The notes: generated from the letters alone by a model not told the origin. 64,000 nt of DNA from a bacterium (GCA_021824915.1 JAKAJP010000022.1:23832-87831); one strand, 5' to 3'. Positions 14,356 to 64,000 are shown, counted from the first letter of the stretch. Numbers and translations: made by a program.

Positions 14356-14356
14356 A

Positions 14357-22570: not shown

Positions 22571-23479
22571 ATGAAGAAAAAAGCGAGACGCTTCCTATCC
22601 ATCTCTGACCTATCAACCACTGAAATAAAGAAAGTGCTGAACCTAGCACTCAAGATCAAACACAATCCAAAGAAATATTCGAATAAATTAAAGGGGTTAA
22701 CTCTAGCCATGATTTTCGAGAAACCATCACTTAGAACAAGAGTTTCATTTGAGACCGGAATGACTCAGCTTGGAGCCCACGCAATTTATTTAGGGCCCAA
22801 CGACATTCAAATGGGTGTTAGAGAAACTCCTTCCGACATAGCCAGAAATCTGGAAAGAATGGTCGACATTATTATGGCAAGAGTTTTTGAACATCAAAAA
22901 TTAATTGAGTTGTCAAAAGACACGAAAGTTCCCGTAATAAACGGCCTAAGCGACCTTGAACACCCCTGCCAGGCGATGGCTGATATCCTCACGGTCTTAG
23001 AAAAAAAGAAAAAGCTTAAAGGACTCAAACTAACCTTTATAGGAGATTGTGAAAATAATGTCACCCACTCACTTGCAATTCTTTGCGACAAACTCGGAAT
23101 GAAGTTTTTCTGTTCTGCCCCAAAAGGATATGAAATGAAAAAAGAGGTTGTTAAAACACTCAAAAATAAAATTACTGAGGTCGTTGACCCTAAAAAGGCA
23201 ATCGAAAATGCGGATATTGTTGTTACAGACACATGGATAAGTATGGGTGACGAAAAAGAAAAAAAGACTAGGCTGAAAGTTTTTCCGCCATATCAAATTA
23301 ATTCAAAGCTAATGAAGCGGGCGAAGGCGGATGCAATTTTCTTGCATTGCTTACCGGCATATCGTGGATTTGAAGTGACGGATGATATCATCGATGGACC
23401 CCAATCGGTAGTCTTTGATGAGGCAGAAAATCGCCTTCATGTGCAAAAAGCTCTAATTCTCTTCTTATTGGGAAAGTGA
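22571..23479 (+). CDS. argF: ornithine carbamoyltransferase
   Basis: Carbamoyl-phosphate site 'SLRTRVSFE' (STRTR), 'HPCQAMAD' (HPxQ) and 'HCLP' ornithine-binding motif; 302 aa. Confidence 0.85.
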   Translation: MKKKARRFLSISDLSTTEIKKVLNLALKIKHNPKKYSNKLKGLTLAMIFEKPSLRTRVSFETGMTQLGAHAIYLGPNDIQMGVRETPSDIARNLERMVDIIMARVFEHQKLIELSKDTKVPVINGLSDLEHPCQAMADILTVLEKKKKLKGLKLTFIGDCENNVTHSLAILCDKLGMKFFCSAPKGYEMKKEVVKTLKNKITEVVDPKKAIENADIVVTDTWISMGDEKEKKTRLKVFPPYQINSKLMKRAKADAIFLHCLPAYRGFEVTDDIIDGPQSVVFDEAENRLHVQKALILFLLGK

Positions 23480-49856: not shown

Positions 49857-51534
49857 GAAGACTAATCCACGTTAAGAGAGAAATGATATTGGCAACACTC
49901 CGTAGTGGTGTATTATACAGCCTCAAAGTAATAATGTGCCGACCGGCCGCCACATCTATATACATCCTTCCCCACGCTTCGCTTTCGGGTACATAATTTT
50001 TGACCTCCTTACCGTCAATATAGGTTTTCCAAACCGGGTATTGAAAAATACCGACCCTAATAGTTGAAGCTGAATCTGCATTTATATTAAAACTCGCCCA
50101 GTTAGTCCCCTCTTTCGGACTTTCGACACTTCCCTTACCAGTCATGAATTCTGCTAATAATTTTTGTCCCTCTTTGGGATTTTCTCGGGCCGCTTGCGGC
50201 AAGTAGTCAAAAATTCCGGCGGTGCGTTGCAAATCCCAAGCTGCGCCACTAAATTTCTGTGTATCGGTTAGCGGTCCCATCTTGCCTCCCTGTGGCAAAA
50301 AATAATTCCAATTCCAAACAATCAACCCAACCAAGACAATGGGGGCAATAAATTTAATTATCTTGTTTGGAAAAAGTATAACAACCGATCCTGCAATAAA
50401 TGAAAAACAAAGAATAACTATTGTTAAAAATCTCCAAGGAAACTGAACGAAGGCAAGAGGGCTAAAAAGCTTCCAGATAAAAGTTGATTTCTCATGAGCC
50501 ATAAAAGCCGCAAACCAGCCGGCAAGAAAAATGTAGAGTATTGTAAAAAGTGTTTGCCTACTCAGTTTAGATTTATTCTTACCTAAAAACATTGCGACAA
50601 CGACAATTCCTATCAGAATTGAAAGTATCCAATGAATATGACCTATTTGAAACGACATTCCATCATTTATACCCCAAACCGAAGGCCCATATCCCCAAAA
50701 TCTGGAAAATAAAAGCTGGTTAATTGTTGCAAAGTGGGCAATATATTCGTAATAACCCTTGACCAGAGTATCAACGTGTACATACTTTTGCTCGAAGGCT
50801 GCGGGTAACTTGAAGAAGGCAGACAATCCTGCAGCAAGTAGTCCTGCTTTAAGTAACTCCCAAATCTTTTTCCATCCTTTAGCCTTCAACCAGAAAAGAA
50901 GACACCAGCCGGCAAAAACCGGCGTAAAAATAAGAACCATCAAATTGTGAGATAAAAGAAGTCCGGTCCAAGAAAGACCAAGGGCAATAATCCATCTCGT
51001 AGTTTTACTCTTTTGAACTATCAATTTATATGAAGTCAGAAGTATTAATGGGAACCATATTAACGCCCAACTTTCGTTCATCGCTCCCCTAACGTAAGCA
51101 TCGACCGAATGATACGGAGCCCAAACATAAAAAACTGATGAAACCACACCACCCCATTTTCCAAAAAATTCTTTTGCAAGGTAGTACATTGTTAATCCCG
51201 ATGCCATAAAAGCCAGCAAGAATAAAATTTTTGCCGTATCAACAAAAGAAAAATGAGCAATTCTAAAAAGTTCACCAACTAAATACGGAAGTGGCGGATA
51301 GTAATTAAAAAGAGGAAAACCGAATCCATAACCCATATCCGGAACCCAGCGGCATGGGATTTGTCCATCCAAAAAACATTTTTCCATTTCTAGCTGGCGC
51401 ATCATTTGCAAGTCATCGTGCATGTTGAAGTATCCGGGTGTTAAGAATGTTCTTCCGGCTAAAATCGCCGAAATCAAAACTATTAGAAGTGGCCAAAAAT
51501 TAGAACTTGAAACAATTTTCTTCAAAAATTTCAT
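49807..51534 (-). CDS. PF10131 'PTPS-related' family membrane protein (GT-C-like), 575 aa
   Basis: 'HDDLQMMRQLEMEKCFLDGQIPCRWVPDMGYGFGFPLFNYYPPLPY' is the hallmark N-terminal block. Paralog of 29261..30724. Confidence 0.55.
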   Translation of the reverse strand: MKFLKKIVSSSNFWPLLIVLISAILAGRTFLTPGYFNMHDDLQMMRQLEMEKCFLDGQIPCRWVPDMGYGFGFPLFNYYPPLPYLVGELFRIAHFSFVDTAKILFLLAFMASGLTMYYLAKEFFGKWGGVVSSVFYVWAPYHSVDAYVRGAMNESWALIWFPLILLTSYKLIVQKSKTTRWIIALGLSWTGLLLSHNLMVLIFTPVFAGWCLLFWLKAKGWKKIWELLKAGLLAAGLSAFFKLPAAFEQKYVHVDTLVKGYYEYIAHFATINQLLFSRFWGYGPSVWGINDGMSFQIGHIHWILSILIGIVVVAMFLGKNKSKLSRQTLFTILYIFLAGWFAAFMAHEKSTFIWKLFSPLAFVQFPWRFLTIVILCFSFIAGSVVILFPNKIIKFIAPIVLVGLIVWNWNYFLPQGGKMGPLTDTQKFSGAAWDLQRTAGIFDYLPQAARENPKEGQKLLAEFMTGKGSVESPKEGTNWASFNINADSASTIRVGIFQYPVWKTYIDGKEVKNYVPESEAWGRMYIDVAAGRHIITLRLYNTPLRSVANIISLLTWISLLAFAMRRLRMVQFRRG

Positions 51535-51606
51535 TTTTCGGTAGGTTTAATTATGAACTAATTTCAGAATTATTCATATAATCTGGCGTTAGCCCTCAAA
51601 ACGAGG

Positions 51607-53190
51607 CTAAATGCCGAGCTTTGAAGGAGATTCTATTTCAAAAAAGTAGAAAGTGTCAAATGGTCCATACCATTTATACTCATGGGTATCTTTCTCACGC
51701 CTGTCAGCTTTTTTATAAGTTGCAACAACTTTCAGACCTTTTGAGCTAAAATCCCCAGGTTTAATTTTTAACCTTGAACTATTCACAACCAAATAAGTTT
51801 TTGTGCCAGAATTAAAGGAAACCTTGAGTTCGTTTGGTACGTCGTTAAAGTCCAAACCCGTTCCTATAACGGTAACATTGGGGATGTTATTCAAATATAT
51901 TTGAAGTCCATCAGGCAAAGTTCCAAAGTATCCTTCTGTCCCGACAACTATTTTTTCATTCGGATTGGCTATATGCTCGTTCTTAATAAAACTAGCCACT
52001 TCGTAGATCCCCGTCCCCGCCGTCCATTCTTCCAAATACCCACTTCGCTCGCTGCTTGGTAAATTGGCTTTATCGGGATTTGTTAACAATCTGCAATCAA
52101 AAAAGATCGCGGTTCCGGCAAAAATAACCAAGAAAACATAATATAAGATTTTTATATATCTATTCTTATTCAAAGATCCTAGCCCCGAAATTATAAAAAC
52201 TGGAGGAAGTGTATAAAGAATATAACGGACGGTAAAAACTTTTGCATATTCACTTTGAACCAAGACCGGAAATAAAAACCAGGCAGTCAAAAGTAACAGT
52301 TCTTTCCAATATTTTTTGAGTCCGGCAAGATATCCAAGTAACCAAATAAACAAAATCGGCCAAGGCCCCATTTTGATAAACCAGTCCTTAAAAATTTCTT
52401 CAATATGAAAAATAAAAGGATCTTTGGGATTGAGCCATAGGTGACTAATCGGAAAGACGTAGTCCTCATTCCTGCTTGAAATTAAATTAAAATTCGGGCC
52501 AAGCCGCAAAATATTATAAAGTCCGTAAGCAATTAAATATGTCGGAATTAAAAGGATGGAAAGATGAAATAAATGTGATAAAAGTTTCTTTTTGTCTTTT
52601 GGGCAGTCGGACAAAATCCAAACGGTTGGGACAAGAAGCGACATAAAAAGTGCTGGAGTTTTAGTCAAAAGCGCACCCCCTAAAGCAAAACCCGTTATCA
52701 TTGCAAAATCAAGTCTTTTTGTTTTTGCAGTTAAAATTGCAAAAAATAAAGTCCAGACTCCGAACATTGCAAGAAACGAATCAACCAGGCTTAACCTGTC
52801 AAAAAAGAAAGAAAATGGAGATAAAACATAAATTAGAGAAGCAATTAGGGATGCAATTTTATTTTTGAAAAGCAAATAGGATACTGCAAAAACTCCGATC
52901 ATTGTTCCAAACCCAGAAGCAACCGAAAGGAGGCGCCCCGCAACTAAAGGATCGCTCATTCGTCTGACATAAAACATTAAAATCCACATAAAAAGAGGTT
53001 GTTTCCCGTCAGAAAGAGGCAAAAATCGTAGAGTTGATTCCGCCGACATTATTTGACTCCAGCGGATATAAATTGCCTCATCTGCAAAAACGGGCAAGAT
53101 TGTTAAATGATAAAGACGGACAAAATAAAGAAGAACAATCCCTAACCCCACCAAAATATAAATCCAATTAACTCTGACGAATTTTCTCAC
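51607..53190 (-). CDS. GT-C fold membrane glycosyltransferase, ArnT (GT83)-like
   Basis: 'PVFADEAIYIRWSQIMSAES' (ArnT-type DE motif followed by aromatic/Arg); about 12 TM helices with a C-terminal soluble domain. Confidence 0.55.
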   Translation of the reverse strand: MRKFVRVNWIYILVGLGIVLLYFVRLYHLTILPVFADEAIYIRWSQIMSAESTLRFLPLSDGKQPLFMWILMFYVRRMSDPLVAGRLLSVASGFGTMIGVFAVSYLLFKNKIASLIASLIYVLSPFSFFFDRLSLVDSFLAMFGVWTLFFAILTAKTKRLDFAMITGFALGGALLTKTPALFMSLLVPTVWILSDCPKDKKKLLSHLFHLSILLIPTYLIAYGLYNILRLGPNFNLISSRNEDYVFPISHLWLNPKDPFIFHIEEIFKDWFIKMGPWPILFIWLLGYLAGLKKYWKELLLLTAWFLFPVLVQSEYAKVFTVRYILYTLPPVFIISGLGSLNKNRYIKILYYVFLVIFAGTAIFFDCRLLTNPDKANLPSSERSGYLEEWTAGTGIYEVASFIKNEHIANPNEKIVVGTEGYFGTLPDGLQIYLNNIPNVTVIGTGLDFNDVPNELKVSFNSGTKTYLVVNSSRLKIKPGDFSSKGLKVVATYKKADRREKDTHEYKWYGPFDTFYFFEIESPSKLGI

Positions 53191-53229
53191 ATCTCAATTC
53201 TAACCCGAACCAATTTTTGAAGCAATAAA

Positions 53230-53883
53230 TCAAAGAGTTGCGGATGTATCTCCATAGATAGTTTGTGAAGCAATATTTGAAAATAGAAAAGGAGCCGACC
53301 TACTTTCTGATTCAGAGGCCGCACTTGATAACGATCTAAAGAGGGCTTTTCTCATTTCAAATCTCGATCTTTTATCGGCATCCGCAACCGAGTGTCCCTT
53401 TATTAAAGTCGTGGCTACAAGGTTTGACGGCTCCAAAAACATTCTTGCTATCGGATCCAAGTAGGGTCTCGTAATATAATCTGTATCAATTAAGAAAACA
53501 AAATCTCGCGAATAACCAATAAATGCTTTCGCTCCGCCATGTGTAACCACCTTTTTGCCAAAAAATACTGCACTTCTACAACTCCTGGAATAAAGAACTT
53601 TACCATCTAATTTTTTAGAAATTATACTCTGGTCATCTAACAAAACCTCATCATTATATCCGGCAATTACGTCTTCTGAACCGTGGCCATTTAGAAAAAT
53701 AAACCCAGGATCATTTGATCTTAAGTAACTCTCAAAATATTTTCTATTAGCTTTTTTACTTTCAAGATCCAAGACTTTGAAATCATGTTTGACTGCTATA
53801 TCCAAAACTGGTTTACTCCAGTAATACAAATAATCAGTTGTAGAGTCGTGATTGGGCCGCGTAACTAAAAGGGTTTTATTCAT
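53230..53883 (-). CDS. hypothetical protein; possible caspase-like (clan CD) fold
   Basis: 'GFIFLNGHGSEDVIAG' (His-Gly) followed about 35 aa later by 'LYSRSCRSAVFFG' (Cys). The spacing resembles the caspase/gingipain catalytic dyad. No signal peptide. Tentative. Confidence 0.3.
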   Translation of the reverse strand: MNKTLLVTRPNHDSTTDYLYYWSKPVLDIAVKHDFKVLDLESKKANRKYFESYLRSNDPGFIFLNGHGSEDVIAGYNDEVLLDDQSIISKKLDGKVLYSRSCRSAVFFGKKVVTHGGAKAFIGYSRDFVFLIDTDYITRPYLDPIARMFLEPSNLVATTLIKGHSVADADKRSRFEMRKALFRSLSSAASESESRSAPFLFSNIASQTIYGDTSATL

Positions 53884-54130
53884 CCTGAAAGATTTTTCCG
53901 CTAGTTAACTCTTTCAGAAACTGAAGCTGTATCTCCGCCATCTGTTTCCCAACATCATCACCTTTTTGAACATGACTCATTATTTCTTCTTTTGTATACT
54001 CACTACCACCAACCGATATCTGTAGATTTGAGGGAATCGATTTTATTCTCTCAACCACTAGTTGTTTCAACTCTTCAGAAAACTCGAATTTATCTTCCTC
54101 CGTTTTAGTCGCTTGAGAATTATTGTCCAT
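53876..54130 (-). CDS. small acidic hypothetical protein (84 aa)
   Basis: ORF only; coding-like codon usage. Overlaps neighbours by 8 and 11 bp, which suggests translational coupling. Confidence 0.35.
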   Translation of the reverse strand: MDNNSQATKTEEDKFEFSEELKQLVVERIKSIPSNLQISVGGSEYTKEEIMSHVQKGDDVGKQMAEIQLQFLKELTSGKIFQDE

Positions 54131-54323
54131 TTTCCTTTTTCAAGATACCAAGTTGCTCTAAAATTTCTAGCGCCTTTTTACCTTTTTCTGTATCAGCCTC
54201 TACTTCCAACCTTAAAACATTCCACGTCATCGGTTCACCGTCAACGACAACCACTATTTCATTTCTACTCGGAAGCGGTAGGTTGGCATAAATATCATTA
54301 AATAAGGCTTTTTTATCGACCAT
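54120..54323 (-). CDS. small hypothetical protein (67 aa)
   Basis: ORF only; 11-bp overlap with the downstream small ORF. Confidence 0.3.
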   Translation of the reverse strand: MVDKKALFNDIYANLPLPSRNEIVVVVDGEPMTWNVLRLEVEADTEKGKKALEILEQLGILKKENGQ

Positions 54324-54385
54324 GACAACCCATTATACAATAATAACACGGTGCAACCCTATCCAAAGTCTCACAAACATCAAGC

Positions 54386-54676
54386 TCATTTTTCACAATT
54401 TGTTTGCTTTTGCAAATTATCGCTACTTAGCTTATGTAGTTCATCCTGAAGTGTGTCAAATTTAACCCTATCATTAGGCATACAGTAACTATCAGATTGG
54501 CAATATTTTTGAAAAACATTTCTCCGTTCCAAGTCAAAATTATTTTGAACAACAGAAAGGCATTTTCTCGCTCTGAAGTCCCTGAGCATAGGCCAACCAA
54601 CGAAGACTAATAACGCCACAACCACAATCAAAAGAATATTCACAATAATATAAAGAGTCAATTTTTTATTCACCAA
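54386..54676 (-). CDS. small N-terminally membrane-anchored Cys-containing hypothetical protein (96 aa)
   Basis: Single N-terminal TM 'LTLYIIVNILLIVVVALLVFVGW', then a soluble part with four Cys (C-x-n-C-x5-C…C). Confidence 0.35.
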   Translation of the reverse strand: MVNKKLTLYIIVNILLIVVVALLVFVGWPMLRDFRARKCLSVVQNNFDLERRNVFQKYCQSDSYCMPNDRVKFDTLQDELHKLSSDNLQKQTNCEK

Positions 54677-54707
54677 GAAAATTATAGCACTCCAAATTTC
54701 GAAAACG

Positions 54708-55490
54708 TCAAATCTCGTTTTCTCGATCAGACATAAGCTTTTTAACGTGGTCTGTTGTATTAATCAATTCCATCAATCTTTCAAAGTCTATCTCTTCGGC
54801 TAGTTTTTGAACCTTATCGGTCGTTCTCTGAATGTATTGAGCAGGAATTAGTAAAAACGGCGCAGGTTTGCCTCTGGCAATTTTTTGCTGGTATAGTTTG
54901 TCAGATTCAGAGGCGAAACAATAATCCGCTCCGGTTTGATCAAATAAATTTTTATAATGAACGCTTGCGTCTACCCCCTCGGGTTTTTCCGGCAAGACAC
55001 TGACTAAAACATTCGGATCATAATACGACCACATAGAGACTCTTGCCCGCAAATCTAAATATGGACCACCTCTTTCTTTAGAATCAACATACCAATCGCG
55101 TTCAAGAAGAAGGATTGGGGAAACAAAACTTCTCATCCAATTCGCTGCAAATCTATGTCCCCCATGTCCCTCAAAACCGCCAGCAAATAAAACGCCGTAC
55201 TTTCCTCCATCAACTAGATTACTTTTTATTTTCTCAAATGGAACCAAAAGACCTCGATCCTCATTCTTTTTATTTCCCAGAAATCTCACCCACCAGCCAA
55301 TCCAATCATCCGCATGTTCTCTCCTAAAACCTAAGTTGGGGCCTGGGATTGTTTTCAAATTTTCAAGTGCTTGCCCAAGATATTCAACTAGAGTATTTTT
55401 GTCCTGAGGCCTATTGTCTGCCAACATCTGATCAATATTTCCCGAAAGAAGATCGGGGCGAAAATTGCGTAAATATTCTTCGTTTGCCAT
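54708..55490 (-). CDS. hypothetical protein (260 aa) with HxGH-like motif
   Basis: 'GVLFAGGFEGHGGHRF' resembles the (T/H)xGH signature of cytidylyltransferase-like nucleotidyltransferases, but its position (about residue 105) is atypical. Confidence 0.3.
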   Translation of the reverse strand: MANEEYLRNFRPDLLSGNIDQMLADNRPQDKNTLVEYLGQALENLKTIPGPNLGFRREHADDWIGWWVRFLGNKKNEDRGLLVPFEKIKSNLVDGGKYGVLFAGGFEGHGGHRFAANWMRSFVSPILLLERDWYVDSKERGGPYLDLRARVSMWSYYDPNVLVSVLPEKPEGVDASVHYKNLFDQTGADYCFASESDKLYQQKIARGKPAPFLLIPAQYIQRTTDKVQKLAEEIDFERLMELINTTDHVKKLMSDRENEI

Positions 55491-55563
55491 CTTGGCGCAA
55501 TTCTACCATTTTTGAGCCCTAAATTTCAGAAACGTAAAATGGATTCAAATCACACTCACCACT

Positions 55564-56313
55564 TTAGACTTTATATTTTCCTTGAAGTGCATTAATGCGA
55601 ACACGGAGGAGGTCGCGAAGGCCTTCCCAAGAGTCGCGGATTGCGTTTATTCTTTCACTTTCTTTATGGTTCCAAGTAACGGGAACTTCTGCAACTTTAT
55701 ATTTTAGTTTTCTGGCCAAATACAAAACTTCCAAATCAAATCCCGCAGTAACTCCGGCCCCTTTTCCTTGTCCTTTCTCGGAAAAAACTTTCATCCTCTT
55801 AAAAATTTCTCTCGAGGCTTCATTCCTAAAAGCCTTAAATCCACACTGGGTGTCTTTATAGGGAAGGCGCAAAATTATTGTTCTTAAAAAAGCAAAGCCA
55901 TAAGCCATGAGTTTTCGTAAAAGAGGTGCTCCTTTTCTACCGGAACGGGATCCGATTACAATATCATACCCTTCTTCAAATTTAGGCAAGAATTTCTCCA
56001 CCTGATCGATCGGAGTTGCTTGATCTGTATCCGTAAAAAGAATAACATCCCCCTTGGCTCTAAGCATTCCGGCAATAACCGTTCCACCTTTACCTCTATG
56101 TGGTTCTTTCAAAACAAAAAAGTTTTTGTGATTTTTGGAAAAATCGTCGGCAATTTTTGCGGTCGCATCACTACTTCCGTCATCAACGAACAAAACTTCC
56201 CAAGAGTATTTTTGTTTCTTCAAATAGTCACTAACCAAATCCAACACTCCAGTCCGAAGATTGTACTCTTCGTTGTACGCAGGAATTACTACCGATAAAT
56301 AAACATTTTTCAT
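55564..56313 (-). CDS. GT2 polyprenol-phosphate sugar synthase, DPM1-like (soluble type)
   Basis: 'LSVVIPAYNEEYNL', 'VLFVDDGSSDAT', 'TDTDQATP', 'DTQCGFKAFR'; no C-terminal TM. ATGA overlap with the downstream GT-C gene. Confidence 0.65.
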   Translation of the reverse strand: MKNVYLSVVIPAYNEEYNLRTGVLDLVSDYLKKQKYSWEVLFVDDGSSDATAKIADDFSKNHKNFFVLKEPHRGKGGTVIAGMLRAKGDVILFTDTDQATPIDQVEKFLPKFEEGYDIVIGSRSGRKGAPLLRKLMAYGFAFLRTIILRLPYKDTQCGFKAFRNEASREIFKRMKVFSEKGQGKGAGVTAGFDLEVLYLARKLKYKVAEVPVTWNHKESERINAIRDSWEGLRDLLRVRINALQGKYKV

Positions 56314-57803
56314 TGCTTTGTAGTAAACAAAATCATAGGATCGGTTAAGTTTGTATCCTCACCCTGACAACTTTTACTTATCCGGTCTTCAGTATAGCGT
56401 TTATAATCCGGCAAAACCAAACCCAAAACCCCGAAATTCACATCCGTTCTTCCAACTTTAGATAGTGGAAAAGCAACCGTATAAACTGGAATATCTTTTT
56501 GTGGGTGTTTGAGTTTAAGTTTATCTAACCAAATTAGATACCTGTAACCCAGATCATATCCTGGATCCGTTATGTAAGAAATTGAAACACAATCGAAACG
56601 CCTTTCCAAAGAATCCTTTTTAATAAAATCAATTAGGGCTTTCCTTTCTACATATCCATTCCCGTTTTCTGCATAGGTAAAAAGCCTATAAAAACTCACT
56701 CCCAGGAAAAGCGCCAGAGCAACAAATACTAACCACTTTAGCCCTTTGAGATTGTAAATGAAGTTAATTGAAAGTGCAGTTGAGGTCAACCAAACAATAT
56801 TTAACCCGTTAAAGTAATATTCGGAAAGGGAAATTTTGCTAAAAGTAAAAAACAAAACGTAAGCCAGAGTCCACACACCAATTACAGCTCCAATTTTCCA
56901 ATATCCTCTATTTTTAAGGAACGCAAAAAAAGTTACAAATGTAAGAACAAAAAACGGCAGAGTATCAGGAACCAGTGGTGTCTTTCTTATAAAAATCCGG
57001 GTTGTGTTTTTATAGACAATATCAGCAACTTTCCAAAATTGATCGGAAAAGGTGTTATTAAGACCGGCGTTGTTTAGATTTTTTCCTTCAATCGCCAAGG
57101 TTATTGCCCGACTCTGCTGAAATCCGTGCCGTGTCTCAAAAAATAAAAAGGGTAAAGCAACAATAAAAAAAACAACCAAACCAGTTAAAACCCACTTAAA
57201 ATTAATTTTTCTCTTTGACAACACAATAGCAACAGGGATCGCAACTGAAGGAATTGCCAGGGCAAAGTTTATATTCCAAATAAACCCAATAAGTCCAAAG
57301 GAAAGAATGTATCCCAGCTTTTTATTTTTAATAATCAAATAAAGGGAATAAAGATACCAAATACCCCACAACGAAACCGGCATTGTTGGAACAACCTCCT
57401 GATTGTTAAGCACGAAGTAATAAGACACGGAATACAAAAAAGCCCCGATCAAACCGATTTTATTATCAAAAATTCTCGAAAAAACAAAATAAATACTTAC
57501 TATTGTCAAAACCGACAAGAATGTTACAAGCGCAATCCCGCCGATTGGATTCATCCCAAAAATTAAATAGAAAGGAACAATAAGGTAGTAAAACACAGAA
57601 CCAATAAAAACTCCGGGAACGCTTGTTTCTTGTCCAATAAGCCTCAAATGACCGCTTAGAACGTCACGTACGAACCAACCAATGAGATCTTGATCATGCG
57701 AGTATGTAAAGCGAGGAACAACTCTATAAAGACGCAGGAAAAGGCCAATGGCAATTATCAAAATCAGAATCCAGTTTTTCTTGAAAAATTTTATAAGCTT
57801 CAT
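56310..57803 (-). CDS. GT-C fold membrane glycosyltransferase, ArnT-like 'DQxRD' subfamily
   Basis: 'FTYSHDQDLIGWFVRDV', about 12 TM helices, C-terminal soluble domain. ATGA overlaps on both sides. Confidence 0.5.
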   Translation of the reverse strand: MKLIKFFKKNWILILIIAIGLFLRLYRVVPRFTYSHDQDLIGWFVRDVLSGHLRLIGQETSVPGVFIGSVFYYLIVPFYLIFGMNPIGGIALVTFLSVLTIVSIYFVFSRIFDNKIGLIGAFLYSVSYYFVLNNQEVVPTMPVSLWGIWYLYSLYLIIKNKKLGYILSFGLIGFIWNINFALAIPSVAIPVAIVLSKRKINFKWVLTGLVVFFIVALPFLFFETRHGFQQSRAITLAIEGKNLNNAGLNNTFSDQFWKVADIVYKNTTRIFIRKTPLVPDTLPFFVLTFVTFFAFLKNRGYWKIGAVIGVWTLAYVLFFTFSKISLSEYYFNGLNIVWLTSTALSINFIYNLKGLKWLVFVALALFLGVSFYRLFTYAENGNGYVERKALIDFIKKDSLERRFDCVSISYITDPGYDLGYRYLIWLDKLKLKHPQKDIPVYTVAFPLSKVGRTDVNFGVLGLVLPDYKRYTEDRISKSCQGEDTNLTDPMILFTTKQ

Positions 57804-59338
57804 TTAATTCTGATCCTTTCCTGAACAGTTATACCACCAAATTTTTCTTCCTTGATCACGTGCCCAATCCCTTTTTGTCTATCGAGCCAGGCGTTCAAAC
57901 GCTCCGGATGCGGCGGGTCAACTTCATATAAGGTATATAAGAGAACGGCCCGATTCGAATCGGGAAGTTTATGATATTTATAAGTCCCCAGCCATTGAAA
58001 TAAATAGTTGTACGCATAGGGGATAACCGGAGGTACATAAACATCCACATTAAAACTTCTTTCACCTGCATCTTTATATATCCAGTCTATCGCCTGTTTT
58101 TGATCGAAAAATAAAATTGATTCGGATGAGCTCGTTGTTTTTAATCTTGGCAAAATAATCGACAGGTTGGCAAAAAGAAAAAGGTAAAGAAAATAAAGAA
58201 CAAATAATTTACCGATCTTAAACCTCCAGATATCACCCAAGACAAGCGAGAGAAGAAGAACAAAGATTAGATAATACCCAGTCATATAATAATCGTATAA
58301 AACACCTTCGTTGCCCTGGAAAAAATAAAGTCCGATAACAGGAGAAATCAAAAGAAGAATTAAAATAACGTAGCCTTTGTTTTTGATATATTTGGGTAAG
58401 TTAATTAAAAACCAAAGCGCCGCTATTCCCAAAACAATCTTTTCTAAAGTTCCGCGGAAGTCAAAAATCAGTTTGGTAAAAACGTTGTAATAAAAATTAG
58501 TCCGGTCTAAAAATAACGATTTGATGGATACCGAAAAACTCTTTTCGGTGACAAATGTTTGGTAAAAATTGTTGGCCAAAATATGCCCGTGTTTGAAATC
58601 AAAAAATACAAGCGGAGCGAAAGTTACTGCAAAAAGAAAAATTGATAAAATAAGATTTTTAAGATCCGGTAAATTTTTTCTTTGCCAAATTGCAAAGGTT
58701 ATGACGGCGGGTACATAAAAAAGTTCTCCTGAACTTCCGAAATTAAACAGCGAAAGACCGATACAAAAAGAAATTACCGGCCAACCCCATTTCTTTCCTT
58801 CGGTTACCTTTAACATCGACCAAACCAAGATCATCGAAAGAACAAGCATTGGGGTAGGGTTACTTAACCACTTTGAACCGGTAACAATATAAAAAGAAAA
58901 AGAGGCGATAGTGGCTGCAATTATCCCCGCAATCCTTCCTTGAATTTTCATGCCAAGGTAGTAAATAAACCCAACAGAAATTATTGATGTAAGAATTAAA
59001 AAGATATCAGGATAGATAGGACTTCCTCTACCAAGAAAGTAAAACGGCGCAATTAAGTAGTAATAATAAGGTCCTCTAAAAATTCCGGCTAAACCAGTGG
59101 TCGGTCCTATCAAAAACCATTTGTGGTTATTCAAAAAATCCCAGATGATGAGAGCGTCCCGCCCCTGATCATAATAAAAACCCAGAAGATCGTTTATTCT
59201 ATAAACACGGATGGCGAATGCGGCAGTTAAAATTAGCGCTAAAAGAGAATAAACAAATGGACGGTTTTTAATCTCTTTAAGAAGTTTTTTGAGCATACTT
59301 TCTGGCGGTTGCCAAAACTTTCTTGGTAGCCTCACCAA
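57800..59338 (-). CDS. GT-C fold membrane glycosyltransferase, ArnT-like 'DQxRD' subfamily
   Basis: 'GFYYDQGRDALIIWD', 'GPYYYYLIAPFY', C-terminal 'GGITVQERIRIK' (shared with 39259..40791). Confidence 0.5.
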   Translation of the reverse strand: MVRLPRKFWQPPESMLKKLLKEIKNRPFVYSLLALILTAAFAIRVYRINDLLGFYYDQGRDALIIWDFLNNHKWFLIGPTTGLAGIFRGPYYYYLIAPFYFLGRGSPIYPDIFLILTSIISVGFIYYLGMKIQGRIAGIIAATIASFSFYIVTGSKWLSNPTPMLVLSMILVWSMLKVTEGKKWGWPVISFCIGLSLFNFGSSGELFYVPAVITFAIWQRKNLPDLKNLILSIFLFAVTFAPLVFFDFKHGHILANNFYQTFVTEKSFSVSIKSLFLDRTNFYYNVFTKLIFDFRGTLEKIVLGIAALWFLINLPKYIKNKGYVILILLLISPVIGLYFFQGNEGVLYDYYMTGYYLIFVLLLSLVLGDIWRFKIGKLFVLYFLYLFLFANLSIILPRLKTTSSSESILFFDQKQAIDWIYKDAGERSFNVDVYVPPVIPYAYNYLFQWLGTYKYHKLPDSNRAVLLYTLYEVDPPHPERLNAWLDRQKGIGHVIKEEKFGGITVQERIRIK

Positions 59339-60269
59339 ACGGAATACCCCTCAATACCGCAGCTCCGGCCTGTTTATGTCCGCCACCACCCAACTCATTA
59401 GCAATCTTTGAGATATCAAAACCCATCTTGGCTCTAAAACTTACATTCAAGAAATTCTTCTTTTCTTCAACCATTATCATCCCAAAATCCGCACCCTGAA
59501 CCGAAGCCGCGTAAAGTCCGGCCGCCATACTTTTAATACCAAAGGATCCTGGATATTGCGAAATCTCTTCAAATGGGACAGCCGACCAAACAAACCTATT
59601 CTCTTTATCAATTTGCATATTCTTAGTTATTTCCGTCATCGCTTTAACCATATCAAAATTAAGATTTCTAAAAATATTGGAGATAATTTTATTTTTATCA
59701 GCGCCCAGCTCCATCAATTTCACAAAAATTTTGGCAGTATCCACATCCGCACTCGAGTGTTCTAAGCAAGATGTATCATAAATAATTCCCGTCAGGAGAT
59801 CCTCAGCAGTCTCCCCATCTACGAGAACTCCCCAATCGTCAAAAATTTTATATAAAATTTCAGATGTTGAACTCCTTTCCTCATCAACCAAATTTATTAC
59901 TCCAAACTTTTCATTCGTAAAATGATGATCAATATTAATTTTTTTAATCGATGGCTTTTTTTCTTTTCCAAATCCAAGGACTTGACTCCACTCTGCTGAA
60001 TCAAGAATTATAAACAAATCGTACGGCGAGAAATCAAAATTATCATAGTCAATTTTCTTAACTACATCTGATGATTTTAAGAACTTTGAATCACCCGAAA
60101 CATTATCCGGACAAACTATTTCAACCTCCTTGTCCATTCCCAACAATATTTTTCTCATGGCAAGAGCTGAACCCACACTATCCGGGTCCGGACTTCTATG
60201 GCAATTAAGTAAAATCCTTTTTGCCTTTTTAATTTCCTCTAATACTTTTGGTGATAAATCGTAATTCAT
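59277..60269 (-). CDS. nrnA: DHH-family phosphoesterase, NrnA-like (oligoribonuclease / pAp phosphatase)
   Basis: DHH motifs 'HRSPDPDSVGSA', 'DHH' (NIDHHFTN) and DHHA1 'GGGGH'; 330 aa. Confidence 0.75.
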   Translation of the reverse strand: MNYDLSPKVLEEIKKAKRILLNCHRSPDPDSVGSALAMRKILLGMDKEVEIVCPDNVSGDSKFLKSSDVVKKIDYDNFDFSPYDLFIILDSAEWSQVLGFGKEKKPSIKKINIDHHFTNEKFGVINLVDEERSSTSEILYKIFDDWGVLVDGETAEDLLTGIIYDTSCLEHSSADVDTAKIFVKLMELGADKNKIISNIFRNLNFDMVKAMTEITKNMQIDKENRFVWSAVPFEEISQYPGSFGIKSMAAGLYAASVQGADFGMIMVEEKKNFLNVSFRAKMGFDISKIANELGGGGHKQAGAAVLRGIPFGEATKKVLATARKYAQKTS

Positions 60270-61813
60270 TTTGTATGTATCAATTTATAAACAGTTACCC
60301 CATCAACTATCCAACTATTCTCTATTTTACTCCATCCGAAGTTGGCAACCTCTGCCTGAGGTGCGTTAACCGGATTACATTTTGATTGTTCTTTTTCACA
60401 AACAACAAAAAGTTGGCTTGTAATAGTACTCGGGACTTGTGCATCAATATCGATAACTTTGTCACCGTTCTTAATTAGAAAATATTTATAACCATCCGGA
60501 TAATTTCTTTCGGCAATTACAGCCACATTAAACTCGCGGCCGCCCGCTTCCTGTTCTATTTTCCCAGCCACATCTTCTGCACGCTTTAGCTGATAATTTG
60601 GTGGGTATTTCAGAGGGCTATTATAGACATTTACACCGATGAGACCCGCAAAAACAACTCCCAAGAAAGGTATTACCCTTTTATATGATGAAAGAAATTG
60701 AAAACATGCACCCAGAAGAATAAACATGGCCGCAAAAATAAATCCGAAATAATGGTCATAAATTTGTTGTTTATATAACCCTAAACCGATAAGCGCAAAT
60801 GCGAGCCATAAAAACAAGAGATAGTAATTTGTATTTTGCAAATAACGCTTTCGGAAGATAAATAAAATACCAACAAAGACGGCCAAAATCACCGAAACGA
60901 CAACGCCAACAACGACATTCTTTGCGCTTATTAAGCTGTCGCTTATCTGAGCAAAAATAACTGGGATAACCGGAATTGCGTTCCATGGTTTTATTGAAAC
61001 TGTGGCCTGTCTCTCTGTAAAAAATTTATAAATTGCTCTGGAATTTATCCAATTATGTCTGATATCAAAAAATAACAGTGGCGACATTAGAAGTAAAAAT
61101 ATAATCGAAGCAAAAATAGAATAACGAATCAGGTTAATTCTTTGTTGCCTTTCTTTCCAAACTCTTAAAAGAACAAACAACCAAAATATAAAAATTGTTG
61201 GAACAAGTAAAAGGCCAAGGTAGTGGGATTGTAATACAAAGGCAAACGCAAAGCCGGTGACCAAAAGCCACTTAAATTGGTTAAACTTCCAAACGCGCCA
61301 GACAGAATAAATGGTTAAAAGCGAAAAGAAAGGCATGATGTTCGGGTTCCATGAACTTCTGGAATAAACAATTATCGTCGGAGCTACCGCGTAGAGAGCG
61401 GCGGATGTAACTCCCGCCACTTTACCAAACCATTCACGCCCCACCCACCAAACAAAAACTATTGTAATAATTCCCAAGATAGCAATTTCAATAGCAGGAC
61501 CGACTGGCGAAAAATTGGCGACTAAAAGGGCGGGAGCCATAAAATAGTAATAAAGCGGGCCTAAATACATATTCCCTATTGAAGTCCCCGGGCCAATTAG
61601 TGGGGGGTGACCTTCCACCAAAAGACGCCTGACAGTTATTACATCACGACCTTCATCTCCCAAGAATGTCATATAGGCATCAATTTTGTAAAGCCGACAA
61701 AAAGCCCCGACAACTAGAATTGCCAGAAGAACATAAAACTCAACCGGATTTTTCTTAATCCAATTCTTAATACTTAACATATAATTCTTCATGTTTATTT
61801 TAATTTTCGCCAA
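60266..61813 (-). CDS. GT-C fold membrane glycosyltransferase, ArnT-like 'DQxRD' subfamily
   Basis: 'FLGDEGRDVITVRRL', 'GPLYYYFMAPAL', about 12 TM helices, C-terminal soluble domain with two Cys. Confidence 0.5.
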   Translation of the reverse strand: MAKIKINMKNYMLSIKNWIKKNPVEFYVLLAILVVGAFCRLYKIDAYMTFLGDEGRDVITVRRLLVEGHPPLIGPGTSIGNMYLGPLYYYFMAPALLVANFSPVGPAIEIAILGIITIVFVWWVGREWFGKVAGVTSAALYAVAPTIIVYSRSSWNPNIMPFFSLLTIYSVWRVWKFNQFKWLLVTGFAFAFVLQSHYLGLLLVPTIFIFWLFVLLRVWKERQQRINLIRYSIFASIIFLLLMSPLLFFDIRHNWINSRAIYKFFTERQATVSIKPWNAIPVIPVIFAQISDSLISAKNVVVGVVVSVILAVFVGILFIFRKRYLQNTNYYLLFLWLAFALIGLGLYKQQIYDHYFGFIFAAMFILLGACFQFLSSYKRVIPFLGVVFAGLIGVNVYNSPLKYPPNYQLKRAEDVAGKIEQEAGGREFNVAVIAERNYPDGYKYFLIKNGDKVIDIDAQVPSTITSQLFVVCEKEQSKCNPVNAPQAEVANFGWSKIENSWIVDGVTVYKLIHTK

Positions 61814-62499
61814 AGCCGGAATAGATCAATAAAACTCTTTATGATCACATTGATATTTCTTCCGGTTCCGGCTCCTTTTGTTCGGGGATAATGCGTAACA
61901 GGAACCTCGGCAAACCTAAATCCTTTTTTCTTTGCTTTAATCAAAAGCTCACTGCTAATGAATGCTCCCCGCTGGCTTTCAAGCTTTGGAATTTTATCTA
62001 TTACCTCTTTTCTAATCAGCTTAAAACCGCAATCAATATCGTGGACTTTCAATCCAAAAAGAATAAACACCGCAAGCTCCCAAAGGCGGCTGGTTAATAT
62101 CTTGAATTTGGAAACCCGTCGTTTTTTATAATAACCAATCACCAAATCCGCCCCAGCCTCTTCCTGCTTCTCAAAAAATTTATTAATTTCTGAAAAATCG
62201 AATTGTCCGTCGGAATCAGTAAAGGCAATCCAATTATATTTTGAATTATAAAAACCATCTGCGAGGGTTGCCCCATAGCCCAAATTTGTTTCATGACTTA
62301 TAACCTTAATCCGCGGGTCACTTTTGGATAAATCTATGGCAATTTTTTGAGTCGAGTCACTACTCCCATCGTTAACTATTATTAACTCCCACTTTTCCGT
62401 CATTTTTTGCAGGATATCCTTTGTATTCAAGACAACTTTACTAATTATTCCTTCTTCGTTGTACGTTGGTAAAAAGACGGAAAGTTCCTTAATTTTCAT
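61795..62499 (-). CDS. GT2 polyprenol-phosphate sugar synthase, DPM1-like (soluble type)
   Basis: 'LSVFLPTYNEEGII', 'LIIVNDGSSDST', 'TDSDGQF', 'DIDCGFKLIR'. Confidence 0.65.
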   Translation of the reverse strand: MKIKELSVFLPTYNEEGIISKVVLNTKDILQKMTEKWELIIVNDGSSDSTQKIAIDLSKSDPRIKVISHETNLGYGATLADGFYNSKYNWIAFTDSDGQFDFSEINKFFEKQEEAGADLVIGYYKKRRVSKFKILTSRLWELAVFILFGLKVHDIDCGFKLIRKEVIDKIPKLESQRGAFISSELLIKAKKKGFRFAEVPVTHYPRTKGAGTGRNINVIIKSFIDLFRLWRKLK

Positions 62500-62550
62500 G
62501 ATTCAACCTCAAGTCTAGCATACGCATAACCTCCATGCTAATATTGGAAT

Positions 62551-63711
62551 ATGGCTGGAAAAATAAAAAATCTGGTTGCGGTAGCCCTTATATCACTTGT
62601 TCCCACCATCCTAATCTGGCTGCCGTTCTTCCTACGGCTACCTTCGTTTTGGAACATTCCACTACCCACCAACGGGCTTGCCACAATCGTTTCCAATTAC
62701 GACGGCCCACTATACTTAGTCGCCGCAAAAACGCTTTACAATAAAAGTGCAATTGAGGCAAATTTCCAATTCCCGCTCCCGGCCGAATACTACACGGCCC
62801 ACTTCCCCCTTTTTCCCCTTCTAATAAGACTGGTCGGTGTGGTCACAAACTATCCTTATGCAATGCTTATTATCACACTTCTCTCCTCCATCCTCGCCAT
62901 CCACTTCTTCTATAAATTAATAGGAAAATACGTTGACAAAAAAGACGCTTTTTTTCTGACAATACTCTTTTCAGTCTTCCCGGCAAGGTGGCTTATTGTC
63001 CGATCGGTTGGTGGAGCCGACCCATTGTTTGTTGCGTCAATCATCGCTTCAATCTATTACTTCAAAGAAAAAAGATATTTATATGCAGGGCTTTGGGGAG
63101 CGGTTGCCCAGTTAACAAAATCTCCAGGAATACTTTTATTCATCTCCTATTTCATCTTCCTACTAATTCCCTTTATTCGTAGAAAAATCGCAGTGACGGG
63201 AAATAAATTACTTGAGAACCTGGATCTAAAAAGAACTTATCCCCTACTTTTGATACCACTCGCCCTTCTTGCAGTATTTGGATTCTATAAAATCACACAA
63301 GGAAGCTTTCTTGCCTACTTCCATTCAGGGGACAACATTCATCTTTTCTTCCCTCCTTTCCAGATTTTTAACTATTCGGCTCCATGGGTCGGCACTTTCT
63401 GGCTCGAAGAAGTCATCTTTATTTATCTAATAGGAGCGGTCGGTGTCTATCGGCTTTTTGCAAAACAGGAATATGAACTAGCAACTTTCTCGGCCGTGTT
63501 TTTCTTCTTAACCCTATTCATAGCACATAGAGACTTAATGCGATATTCCCTACCGTTATTTCCATTCCTCTACGTAGCGTTCGCTGATGTTCTAATCAAA
63601 AAAGAATTCAAGCTCGCGCTCATTATAATCGTTATTCCTATATATCTTTTTTCTTTAAGCTTTATTTCCCAAAACGTGATGCCAATAAGCAATTGGGCGC
63701 CGTTTTTATAA
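62551..63711 (+). CDS. GT-C fold membrane glycosyltransferase, PIG-V/mannosyltransferase-2-like (paralog of 20300..21448)
   Basis: 'YDGPLYLVAAKTLY' and 'YTAHFPLFPLLIRLVGVV' parallel 'FDGEHYIALAREGY…YYFFPLFPLLIRFF' in 20300..21448; about 10 TM helices. Confidence 0.5.
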   Translation: MAGKIKNLVAVALISLVPTILIWLPFFLRLPSFWNIPLPTNGLATIVSNYDGPLYLVAAKTLYNKSAIEANFQFPLPAEYYTAHFPLFPLLIRLVGVVTNYPYAMLIITLLSSILAIHFFYKLIGKYVDKKDAFFLTILFSVFPARWLIVRSVGGADPLFVASIIASIYYFKEKRYLYAGLWGAVAQLTKSPGILLFISYFIFLLIPFIRRKIAVTGNKLLENLDLKRTYPLLLIPLALLAVFGFYKITQGSFLAYFHSGDNIHLFFPPFQIFNYSAPWVGTFWLEEVIFIYLIGAVGVYRLFAKQEYELATFSAVFFFLTLFIAHRDLMRYSLPLFPFLYVAFADVLIKKEFKLALIIIVIPIYLFSLSFISQNVMPISNWAPFL

Positions 63712-63712
63712 C

Positions 63713-64000
63713 TTAGTAGCTATCTACAAACCTTACCCTGTCGATATAAATAAGTTTTTTGGAGTCAATAACTTCAACCGTCTCATCATAAGTTGCAAAC
63801 ACATTTTTCAATTTTCTAAATTCTTCCTCTTTCATCCAGATATTCTCCCCCTCCAAAACTTTAGCTTTTAATTTTCCACCGACACCGTCCACCCGAAAAA
63901 CCCAGAAATATTTATCCTCAAGTAATTTTCCCTTCTTATGAAAATGGTGATAATGAACAATCCCTTTGAGCGTAAAGTCTCCTGTTAATCCAGTTTCCTC
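63713..64000 (-). CDS. hypothetical protein, 3' end only (gene continues beyond window)
   Basis: Manual translation of the minus strand from 64000 gives a 95-codon stop-free frame (…GIVHYHHFHKKGKLLEDKYFWVFRVDGVGGKLKAKVLEGENIWMKEEEF…VDSY*) ending at TAA 63713-63715. It is absent from the ORF track only because the start lies outside the window. Confidence 0.4.
   Translation of the reverse strand, partial: EETGLTGDFTLKGIVHYHHFHKKGKLLEDKYFWVFRVDGVGGKLKAKVLEGENIWMKEEEFRKLKNVFATYDETVEVIDSKKLIYIDRVRFVDSY

Follow-up and report, generated by a model that had tools for sequence, protein, structure and literature searches.

Introduction

A three-component scheme has been described for glycosylation systems in which a polyprenyl-phosphate-sugar synthase, a flippase and a transferase of the GT-C class are combined (PMC11127046). 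The synthase does not necessarily carry membrane helices of its own: DPM1 has none and needs a membrane partner (PMC4728340), and the mycobacterial cases Ppm1-D2/Ppm2 and PpgS/Rv3632 consist of a helix-less synthase that is paired with, or fused to, a membrane partner (PMC3485146). Here we analyse a stretch of 64,000 nucleotides of a bacterial genome (GCA_021824915.1 JAKAJP010000022.1:23832-87831; in the following the window, with positions counted from its first letter) and in particular its region 55564-62499, in which genes for glycosyltransferases of family GT2 without membrane helices adjoin genes for GT-C-like membrane proteins. It forms the 5' portion of a long array of glycosylation genes on the minus strand, in the genome of an uncultivated member of the Microgenomates (Candidate Phyla Radiation, CPR, or Patescibacteria).

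The inherited units of this array are pairs of a synthase-like gene and a GT-C gene that follows it, and in several relatives the members of one such pair are fused into a single protein. We assign a probability of about 0.7 to the overall reading suggested by sequence comparison and structure models, namely that the synthases load polyprenyl phosphate with a sugar, that the lipid-linked sugar is flipped across the membrane, and that the GT-C proteins transfer it to acceptors at the cell surface. The system is an uncharacterised, lineage-wide case of the known combination of synthase and GT-C transferase; a search of the available literature returned no description of this block in CPR bacteria.

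Gene layout of the region

The window has a G+C content of 38%, almost all of its genes lie on the minus strand, and transcription runs from high to low coordinates. The region itself consists of a run of six genes, all of which are present as open reading frames (ORFs) on the minus strand at the places given by the initial annotation. In the order of transcription these are:

61795-62499, minus strand: GT2a, a GT2 protein of 234 amino acids without membrane helices; it opens the run and belongs to the core genes of the Microgenomates.
60266-61813, minus strand: GTC60, an ArnT/PMT-like GT-C protein of 515 amino acids; the probable start is the ATG at 61792, corresponding to the public protein of 508 amino acids.
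59277-60269, minus strand: DHH/DHHA1 phosphoesterase (NrnA/TM1595-like) of 330 amino acids, with the Pfam domains DHH and DHHA1.
57800-59338, minus strand: GTC57, a GT-C paralog of 512 amino acids with the motif DQGRD; the probable start is the ATG of the public protein of 498 amino acids.
56310-57803, minus strand: GTC56, a GT-C paralog of 497 amino acids with the motif DQDLI (PMT_2).
55564-56313, minus strand: GT2b, a GT2 protein of 249 amino acids without membrane helices (PF00535).

Stop and start codons overlap as ATGA at three junctions of this run. At the junction of GT2a and GTC60 the ATG of the public 508-amino-acid protein lies 2 nucleotides past the stop codon of GT2a, and at the junction of the DHH gene and GTC57 the start of the public 498-amino-acid protein overlaps the end of the DHH gene by 20 nucleotides. 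A scan of positions 51000-64000 for promoters and terminators gave counts no higher than those of shuffled sequence, and operon boundaries are therefore not set from it.

The helix-less GT2 proteins

Domains were assigned with Pfam, NCBIfam (using its equivalog cut-offs), PHROGs and PADLOC, membrane segments with a Kyte-Doolittle scan, and paralogy within the window with an all-against-all BLAST of the window ORFs. GT2a and GT2b match the Pfam family Glycos_transf_2 (PF00535) with E=4e-30 and E=8e-31, respectively, and the Kyte-Doolittle scan detects no hydrophobic or membrane segment in either protein. Compared by sequence with solved structures, GT2a is closest to ArnC (E=7e-17), followed by GtrB (5e-13) and DPMS (5e-11), whereas the order for GT2b is DPMS (E=1.8e-15), GtrB (3.3e-15) and ArnC (1.4e-14). 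Both had been described initially as DPM1-type enzymes without membrane anchors. Membership of GT2 and the lack of a membrane helix are borne out; the term DPM1-type applies to their architecture only, GT2a being nearer to ArnC than to DPMS.

Instead of the three synthases counted initially, the window holds four: two further members are GT2c, which carries two C-terminal helices, and the previously overlooked GT2d (18281-19054). A fifth enzyme, a fusion of a GT2 and a GtrA-like domain, lies just outside. For each of the four within the window the closest solved structures are ArnC, GtrB and DPMS only, the next-best E-values being at least 100-fold weaker. The proposal that the synthases are distinct also holds, since near-identity is rejected by pairwise identities of 28-37% among the four (30-37% among GT2a, GT2b and GT2c, and 28-30% between GT2d and each of these). 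In the all-against-all BLAST the seven other GT2 proteins of the window group apart, as conventional GT-A enzymes.

Functional residues of PfDPMS were taken from PMC5526996 and further published residues from PMC4728340; fragments of PfDPMS, ArnC and GtrB were recovered from alignment printouts and aligned with the five enzymes using MAFFT. The reference motifs are 89-DADLQH of PfDPMS and 94-DADLQD of GtrB, and the reference ligands of the acceptor phosphate are R117, R131 and S135 of PfDPMS and R122 and R200 of GtrB. On alignment, the catalytic motifs are conserved in GT2a, GT2b and GT2c, and GT2d has an altered but likewise conserved motif. For GT2a, 3608 homologs were found, the best 120 of which are 69-100% identical (69-82% without the exact match). 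Its donor and metal motif reads DSDGQ, and this motif as well as R127, K133, S137 and R206 are invariant in 23 orthologs. The corresponding motif of GT2b is DTDQ, with both Asp residues conserved in at least 95% and the Gln in at least 90% of 68 orthologs. Also conserved in at least 95% of these orthologs are E15, D95, D97, G121, R123, R126, R133 and the sequence DTQCGFK, so that the acceptor loop retains GSR123 together with R133.

Structure models were computed with AlphaFold2 for GT2a and GTC60 and compared with the PDB using Foldseek. The model of GT2a (pLDDT 90) consists of a GT-A core and two long helices, 131-148 and 216-233, the latter, at the C-terminus, being strongly amphipathic (muH 0.68). 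The model thus includes the two amphipathic juxtamembrane or interface helices that are typical of the group. Ranks 1 to 21 of the Foldseek comparison are all ArnC, GtrB or DPMS (TMq 0.64-0.82, with 210-250 columns aligned).

Curated families place the enzymes at a distance from their characterised relatives. The NCBIfam model of ArnC (NF007986, cut-off 529) gives 181 bits for GT2c, 69 for GT2a, 63 for GT2b and 31 for GT2d. GT2a spans the whole PpgS model (4-221 of 226) and scores 55.8 bits against a cut-off of 370, and GT2b and GT2d find their best NCBIfam match in PgfS, with whose N-terminal catalytic part they align (80 and 48 bits, respectively; cut-off 500). A rough neighbour-joining tree was built from the five enzymes and the PfDPMS, ArnC and GtrB fragments (without DPM1, Ppm1 and PpgS). 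In it, GT2a and GT2b form clades of their own, and only the GT2-GtrA fusion groups with PfDPMS. Judged by sequence, GT2a to GT2d belong to the polyprenyl-phosphate glycosyltransferase group, and none of them appears to be an ortholog of a characterised member. Because they fall below all equivalog cut-offs, neither such orthology nor a donor sugar can be assigned. The guanine-contacting residue D39 of PfDPMS is also Asp in the UDP-using enzymes ArnC and GtrB, and hence the sugar specificity is not predictable from this residue. The initial proposal that three synthases imply at least three donors, for example Man, Glc and an amino- or deoxy-sugar, is speculative.

The GT-C membrane proteins

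All three GT-C proteins of the run score above the Pfam cut-off for PMT_2 (GTC60 52.7 bits, and additionally 27.4 bits for PMT; GTC57 33.5 bits; GTC56 36.6 bits) and have seven to nine hydrophobic segments, with nine in GTC60. GTC57 is 27% identical to GTC60. The AlphaFold2 model of GTC60, computed from 42 sequences, has a pLDDT of 91, and the top 37 Foldseek matches are all GT-C proteins: ArnT (5f15) comes first (TMq 0.60), followed by AglB, STT3, Pmt4, PglB, ALG12/9 and Emb. The model thus gives GTC60 a GT-C fold; GTC57, GTC56 and the other proteins were assigned to GT-C by their Pfam matches and their paralogy with GTC60.

The motif that follows the first helix is GDEGRD in GTC60, YDQGRD in GTC57 and HDQDLI in GTC56. 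A description of all three as 'DQxRD' GT-C genes is therefore right as to PMT_2 and GT-C and too narrow as to the motif, which occurs in its exact form only in the gene at 57800 (DQGRD) and, elsewhere in the window, in that at 39259. In GTC60 the residues D46-E47-G48-R49-D50 are conserved in at least 90% of 42 sequences, and a D[E/Q] pair just past the first helix is found in 13 of the 15 PMT_2-type paralogs of the window. By analogy with known GT-C topology, the loop that carries the motif would lie outside the membrane.

Six further GT-C paralogs are encoded on the minus strand between 24339 and 36976 (at 24339, 25990, 27642, 30708, 33654 and 35405). Five of them are 27-34% identical to each other, the sixth (35405) is 23-27% identical to these, and a YfhO-like paralog (29261) and a membrane protein without family assignment (32371) are interleaved among the six. 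The stretch looks like an old tandem amplification.

Natural fusions of GT2a and GTC60

Three clusters of GTC60 homologs (P0164, P0182 and P0236) consist of proteins of 719-734 amino acids with an N-terminal GT2a-like domain that runs directly into the first helix of the GT-C part. Contigs were identified for two of these clusters, and in both cases the fusion occupies exactly the slot of GT2a and GTC60 in the conserved block. P0182 is found in two NCBI assemblies and P0236, with a diverged sequence, in a third (loci are given here by the handles of the compared records):

L093:7001-9202, L094:4359-6560 and L095:3645-5849: fusions of GT2a and GTC60 in a single ORF, 733-734 amino acids, from three assemblies and two diverged lineages.

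An assembly error is unlikely, because the fusion occurs in diverged sequences from independent assemblies. As sequence evidence goes, these proteins are the strongest available indication that GT2a and GTC60 act together, and they also fit a cytoplasmic N-terminus of the GT-C protein.

A more far-reaching version would have GT2a and GTC60 form an obligate complex, in which the GT-C protein anchors the synthase, as DPM3 or Ppm2 would, and receives and perhaps flips the polyprenyl-phosphate sugar. We regard this as tentative and, on balance, unlikely. If true, the complex would be a two-component machine for extracytoplasmic glycosylation without a separate flippase, it would serve a core and probably essential function of the Microgenomates envelope, and the GT2-GT-C fusions would be its covalent version.

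The fusions also bear on the question whether the helix-less GT2s are polyprenyl-phosphate glycosyltransferases at all. They could be ordinary cytoplasmic GT-A enzymes that extend a polyprenyl-diphosphate-linked oligosaccharide or another acceptor in a pathway of the Wzx/Wzy type, next to GT-C genes because all belong to a shared glycan cluster. The company they keep would suit such a role, as the window encodes seven conventional GT2s, five GT4-type enzymes and two Wzx-like flippases; moreover, the helix-less GT2s stay under every curated family cut-off and also match soluble GT2s, among them chondroitin synthase and TarP, albeit more weakly. Yet their best matches in sequence and fold are exclusively polyprenyl-phosphate glycosyltransferases, they stand apart from the conventional GT2s of the window in the BLAST grouping, and GT2a both retains the two interface helices and is fused head-to-tail with a GT-C protein in some lineages. 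Taken together this makes the role of an ordinary GT-A enzyme improbable, and we retain the assignment to lipid-linked donor synthesis.

Conservation of gene order

The genome scan, restricted to one genome per species, identified at least 569 genomes with a relative of GT2a. Synteny was evaluated on the best 80 of these, which belong to Woesebacteria, Shapirobacteria, Amesbacteria and other Microgenomates, and loci were compared by ORF calling and BLAST classification against the proteins of the window. Many of the records L013-L090 are titled 'uncultured Gammaproteobacteria', 'Pseudomonadales', 'Bdellovibrionales' or 'Chloroflexota'; their gene content and their identity to Woesebacteria suggest that the records were mislabelled or the contigs mis-binned. 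Around the six-gene run, the comparison involves the following genes of the window:

62551-63711, plus strand: M386, a GT-C-like membrane protein whose transcription diverges from that of GT2a (PMT_2 33.6 bits; NCBIfam AZOBR_p60025 family 40 bits, below the cut-off).
53230-55490, minus strand: five small genes of 260, 96, 67, 84 and 217 amino acids without family match.
51607-53190, minus strand: GTC51, a GT-C protein (PMT_2/PMT) with ADEAIY after the first helix (PMT_2 39.6 bits, PMT 27.8 bits).
49807-51534, minus strand: YfhO-like GT-C membrane protein (PF09586, 30.4 bits).
48321-49856, minus strand: Wzx-like flippase of the MOP family, a candidate exporter of lipid-linked sugar (Polysacc_synt_3, E=1.4e-54; thirteen hydrophobic segments).
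46700-48361, minus strand: M46700, a multi-pass membrane protein of 553 amino acids (eight hydrophobic segments; no Pfam or NCBIfam match).

A gene of the GTC60 type directly follows GT2a in 68 of the 71 loci with room for it. In 55 of 56 loci GT2b lies downstream of GT2a at a distance of at most 10 kb, and it is itself followed by a gene of the GTC51 type in 43 of 53. The number of GT-C genes between GT2a and GT2b varies from 0 to 5 (one in 16 loci, two in 16 and three in 19), and in loci of the Shapirobacteria type nothing is interposed, the order being GT2a, GTC60, GT2b, GTC51, YfhO, Wzx and membrane protein. Further downstream the core order GTC51, YfhO, Wzx, M46700 is conserved. GTC57 and GTC56 vary in presence among the loci, with GTC56 missing from many relatives, and the GT-C-like M386 is the divergent upstream neighbour in 44 of 64 loci. 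Across the classes of the Microgenomates, identity amounts to 57-73% for GT2a versus 34-69% for GTC60.

From the adjacency of GT2a and GTC60 and of GT2b and GTC51, together with the Shapirobacteria-type loci that hold nothing between the pairs, it follows that the inherited units are two pairs of a synthase gene and a subsequent transferase gene, GT2a with GTC60 and GT2b with GTC51. GTC57, GTC56 and the DHH gene are variable insertions between these pairs. The initial annotation had taken the bracketing of the block by two synthases as its modular logic, and this is not the conserved arrangement; GTC51 lies downstream, outside the block. Its broader proposal of a module of donor synthase and transferase fares better: adjacency and fusions tie synthase to GT-C, while the third component of a Gtr-type module, a small GtrA, is absent from the window.

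The DHH gene matches the Pfam families DHH (E=6e-16) and DHHA1 (E=1e-6), and the motifs DPD, DHH and GGGH are visible in its sequence. The protein aligns over its full length with TM1595 (5o1u, E=1e-31), NrnA proteins follow at about 1e-19, and the NrnA model of NCBIfam gives it 63.8 bits (cut-off 350). The gene is present in 32 of 56 related loci. It is most simply taken as a probable housekeeping passenger, because it is optional in the block; as a general rule, an integral role of DHH in the module was rejected on the same count. Three relatives (L033, L059 and L069) show tandem duplication of the gene, two or three times over. In a further relative the usual DHH slot (L095:5846-7091) is occupied by genes for a protein of 234 amino acids and for an RNase_T/Rv2179c-like exonuclease of 183 amino acids, so that another small-RNA nuclease may have taken the place of DHH.

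If GT2a and GT2b instead formed a closed module, bracketing and jointly serving three GT-C proteins with DHH as an integral part, the dense packing of the six genes with their ATGA overlaps would be readily accounted for, as would the recurrence of the order GT2a, GT-C, DHH, GT-C, GT2b in many genomes of the Woesebacteria type and the tandem duplications of DHH. Such a module is nevertheless quite improbable in view of the variable number of interposed GT-C genes, the loci that lack DHH, and the Shapirobacteria-type arrangement with nothing between the pairs. In addition, the constant neighbour of GT2b lies downstream, outside the bracket, and the full-length relationship of the DHH protein to the dinucleotide phosphodiesterase TM1595 suggests a housekeeping role. 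The reading in terms of two inherited pairs accommodates these observations.

The five small genes at 53230-55490 separate GT2b from GTC51 in this genome only. None of them has a match in Pfam, PHROGs or PADLOC, nor in NCBIfam for the two of the five that were tested, and they show no homologs in the other compared loci and no anomaly of composition. The 260-amino-acid protein among them carries a GGFEGHGGH motif. In two relatives, parts of a diversity-generating retroelement are located beside the conserved block, namely a reverse transcriptase with bAvd, or bAvd alone (L007:4235-5773 and L091:10655-11029).

GT2c, GT2d and the GT2-GtrA fusion

The remaining members of the group and their neighbours are:

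18281-19054, minus strand: GT2d, a GT2 protein of 257 amino acids without membrane segment (PF00535, E=1e-18).
19056-20312, minus strand: Wzx-like flippase (Polysacc_synt_3, E=8.5e-16).
20300-21448, minus strand: M382, a GT-C-like paralog of M386 (PMT_2 20.9 bits, below the cut-off).
14357-15307, minus strand: GT2c, an ArnC/GtrB-type protein of 316 amino acids with two C-terminal helices (match to ArnC).
13330-14391, minus strand: GDP-mannose 4,6-dehydratase (PF16363, E=5e-108), overlapping the end of GT2c by 35 nucleotides.
L001:269-1417, about 64897-66045 on the scale of the window, minus strand: the fifth enzyme, a GT2 with a GtrA_DPMS_TM domain, 382 amino acids, about 0.9 kb past the end of the window.

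GT2c matches ArnC (E=1.7e-46; residues 6-298 are aligned, and with them both C-terminal helices, 239-257 and 273-291) and GtrB (E=2e-29), which agrees with its initial description as a GtrB/ArnC-type enzyme with two C-terminal helices. Its motif DADLQD is identical to that of GtrB, and Lys and Ser occupy the aligned acceptor positions. Among the annotated ORFs of the window, arnA, arnB and arnD were not identified. By sequence, GT2c has the architecture of ArnC without being an ArnC equivalog. The pair of GT2c and dehydratase is missing at the equivalent place in the relative L092 and therefore looks like an accessory cassette. Going by adjacency, GT2c might load a 6-deoxy or amino sugar made via the adjoining dehydratase.

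GT2d joins the BLAST group of GT2a, GT2b and GT2c, and its best solved relative is the archaeal DPMS (E=2.5e-12). With 5037 homologs found, the best 120 being 71-100% identical (71-88% without the exact match), it is also a core gene. Its upstream neighbours, the Wzx-like flippase and M382, are present in the same order in L091 and L092. The variant metal motif is LDAGMD, where PfDPMS has DADLQ; in 24 orthologs (71-100% identical) D99-A-G-M as well as K128, R141 and S145 are invariant, and D103 nearly so, R141 and S145 being the counterparts of R131 and S135 of PfDPMS. Because it is conserved across these orthologs, the altered motif appears to be a selected variant and not the product of decay. 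That GT2d, and possibly others, would be non-catalytic or carry out a different chemistry after loss of the metal-binding Asp of DXD (DAGMD versus DADLQ) is very improbable given this conservation, which points to a selected functional variant, and an Asp at the position of the metal-binding Gln93 could take over metal binding.

Directly after GT2d, on the minus strand at 16424-18280, lies a gene for a protein of 618 amino acids with an N-terminal hydrophobic segment and no match in Pfam, NCBIfam or PHROGs. A gene for 614 amino acids follows the GT2d ortholog in a relative (L091:8774-10618).

The fifth enzyme was seen because public assemblies carry the same contig past the right end of the window. 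Its match to PfDPMS (E=6e-36) spans the whole protein together with the GtrA-like membrane domain, and its gene adjoins trmD. Its motif reads DADFQH (DADLQH in PfDPMS), and GSR, R and S are all conserved. Of 64 related genomes, 45 have this gene upstream of GT2a.

Other genes of the window

Glycosylation machinery takes up nearly the whole 64 kb (1-64000). The tally comprises about 18-20 GT-C-like or YfhO-like membrane proteins, 11 GT2s, 5 GT4-type enzymes, 2 Wzx-like flippases, 5 sugar-nucleotide enzymes and 3 methyltransferases. Inside this island, an aspartate/ornithine carbamoyltransferase gene (22571-23479, plus strand) is one of only four plus-strand ORFs and overlaps the start of the adjoining GT4 gene. 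At 9209-10729, on the minus strand, a DegT-type aminotransferase ORF of 506 amino acids has a C-terminal extension of about 110 amino acids with weak, conflicting matches (cupin/FdtA-like and Polysacc_synt_C); either the gene is a fusion or the ORF was called too long.

Genomes of CPR bacteria comprise about 1 Mb. The related complete genomes amount to 0.8-1.1 Mb, so that the genome considered here probably has about 1 Mb as well and the island makes up a large share of it.

Proposed mechanism and its significance

In the scheme favoured here, GT2a, GT2b, GT2c, GT2d and the GT2-GtrA fusion would, as their homology suggests, convert nucleotide sugars into polyprenyl-phosphate monosaccharides at the cytoplasmic face of the membrane. 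GT2a would be seated at the membrane by its amphipathic interface helices and probably also by the adjoining GT-C protein. The lipid-linked sugar would then be flipped, which might be done by a Wzx-like protein, by the GT-C protein itself or by the fifth enzyme through its GtrA-like domain. At the outer face an ArnT/PMT-like GT-C protein would pass the sugar on to its acceptor, either a surface protein or a wall glycopolymer, presumably using the Asp of the D[E/Q] motif in the loop past the first helix. Gene order would further suggest that each GT-C protein uses the product of the synthase directly upstream, a refinement in which we place less confidence than in the scheme as a whole.

Several points weigh against the scheme. 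With regard to the synthases, no member of GT2a to GT2d reaches an NCBIfam equivalog cut-off, the best being GT2c with 181 bits for ArnC. The Arg of GT2a that is equivalent to R117 of PfDPMS or R122 of GtrB is ambiguous in the register of the MAFFT alignment, GT2b has Ala in place of Ser135 of PfDPMS, and the DXD motif of GT2d lacks its second Asp. A comparison of the GTC60 sequence with solved structures gave nothing at E<=0.1. For the flipping step, the window contains no stand-alone small flippase of the GtrA or SMR type, nor an unassigned gap or a small multi-helix ORF that could stand for one; the sole GtrA-like element is a domain of the fifth enzyme, past the end of the window, besides which the Wzx-like proteins at 19056 and 48321 have to be considered. 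Finally, most of the compared genomes belong to one class, and part of the synteny may reflect shared ancestry; adjacency speaks for co-inheritance and probable co-expression, and not for the use of a given synthase's product by a GT-C protein.

To our knowledge, almost nothing is known of the cell surface of CPR bacteria, and the dedication of at least 60 kb to glycosylation in a genome of this size is of interest in this respect. That GT2a is more conserved than its neighbours suggests that extracytoplasmic glycosylation driven by lipid-linked donors is central to the lineage. GT2a with GTC60, GT2b with GTC51 and the natural fusions are concrete enzyme pairs for reconstitution and could reveal the surface sugars of CPR bacteria, which likely mediate attachment to the host.

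Comparison with known systems

With PfDPMS (type III) and human DPM1 (type II) the enzymes share the GT-A domain, the DXD(LQ) motif, in part the Arg and Ser of the acceptor loop and, in the model of GT2a, the interface helices (PMC5526996). In contrast to DPMS, GT2a and GT2b fall into clades of their own, only the fifth enzyme is a true DPMS look-alike, and no DPM2- or DPM3-like gene was seen.

The streptococcal Pgf system, which glycosylates Ser/Thr-rich surface proteins at oxygen, pairs a GtrB-like synthase with PMT_2-type GT-C enzymes. Its PgfS supplies, with its N-terminal part, the best NCBIfam match of GT2b and GT2d; unlike these, PgfS has membrane helices, and their scores remain far below the PgfS cut-off.

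As in the GtrA/GtrB/Gtr(type) and ArnC/ArnE-F/ArnT systems, the synthase adjoins a GT-C gene (PMC11127046), and the closest fold of GTC60 is ArnT. GT2c resembles GtrB and ArnC further in its DADLQD motif and two C-terminal helices, whereas GT2a, GT2b and GT2d are without the two-helix anchor that forms the stalk of the GtrB and ArnC tetramers. The Gtr and Arn systems have one of each component; here, four to five synthases are accompanied by about 18-20 GT-C-like genes, and a stand-alone GtrA- or ArnE/F-like flippase is not found in the window.

The mycobacterial Ppm1 (D2)/Ppm2 and PpgS/Rv3632 provide the parallel of a helix-less GT2 beside, or fused to, its membrane partner. Also in common with mycobacteria are the many GT-C paralogs, there PimE, Mpt, Emb/Aft and Rv3779, which use the lipid-linked donor outside the membrane (PMC3485146). 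The differences are that the host is a CPR bacterium, that GT2a scores far under the PpgS cut-off, and that the partner (and, in relatives, the fusion partner) is the GT-C protein itself instead of an Lnt-like or a small GtrA-like protein. The underlying logic is well known from mycobacteria, enterobacteria and streptococci, and the arrangement described here extends this principle without overturning it.

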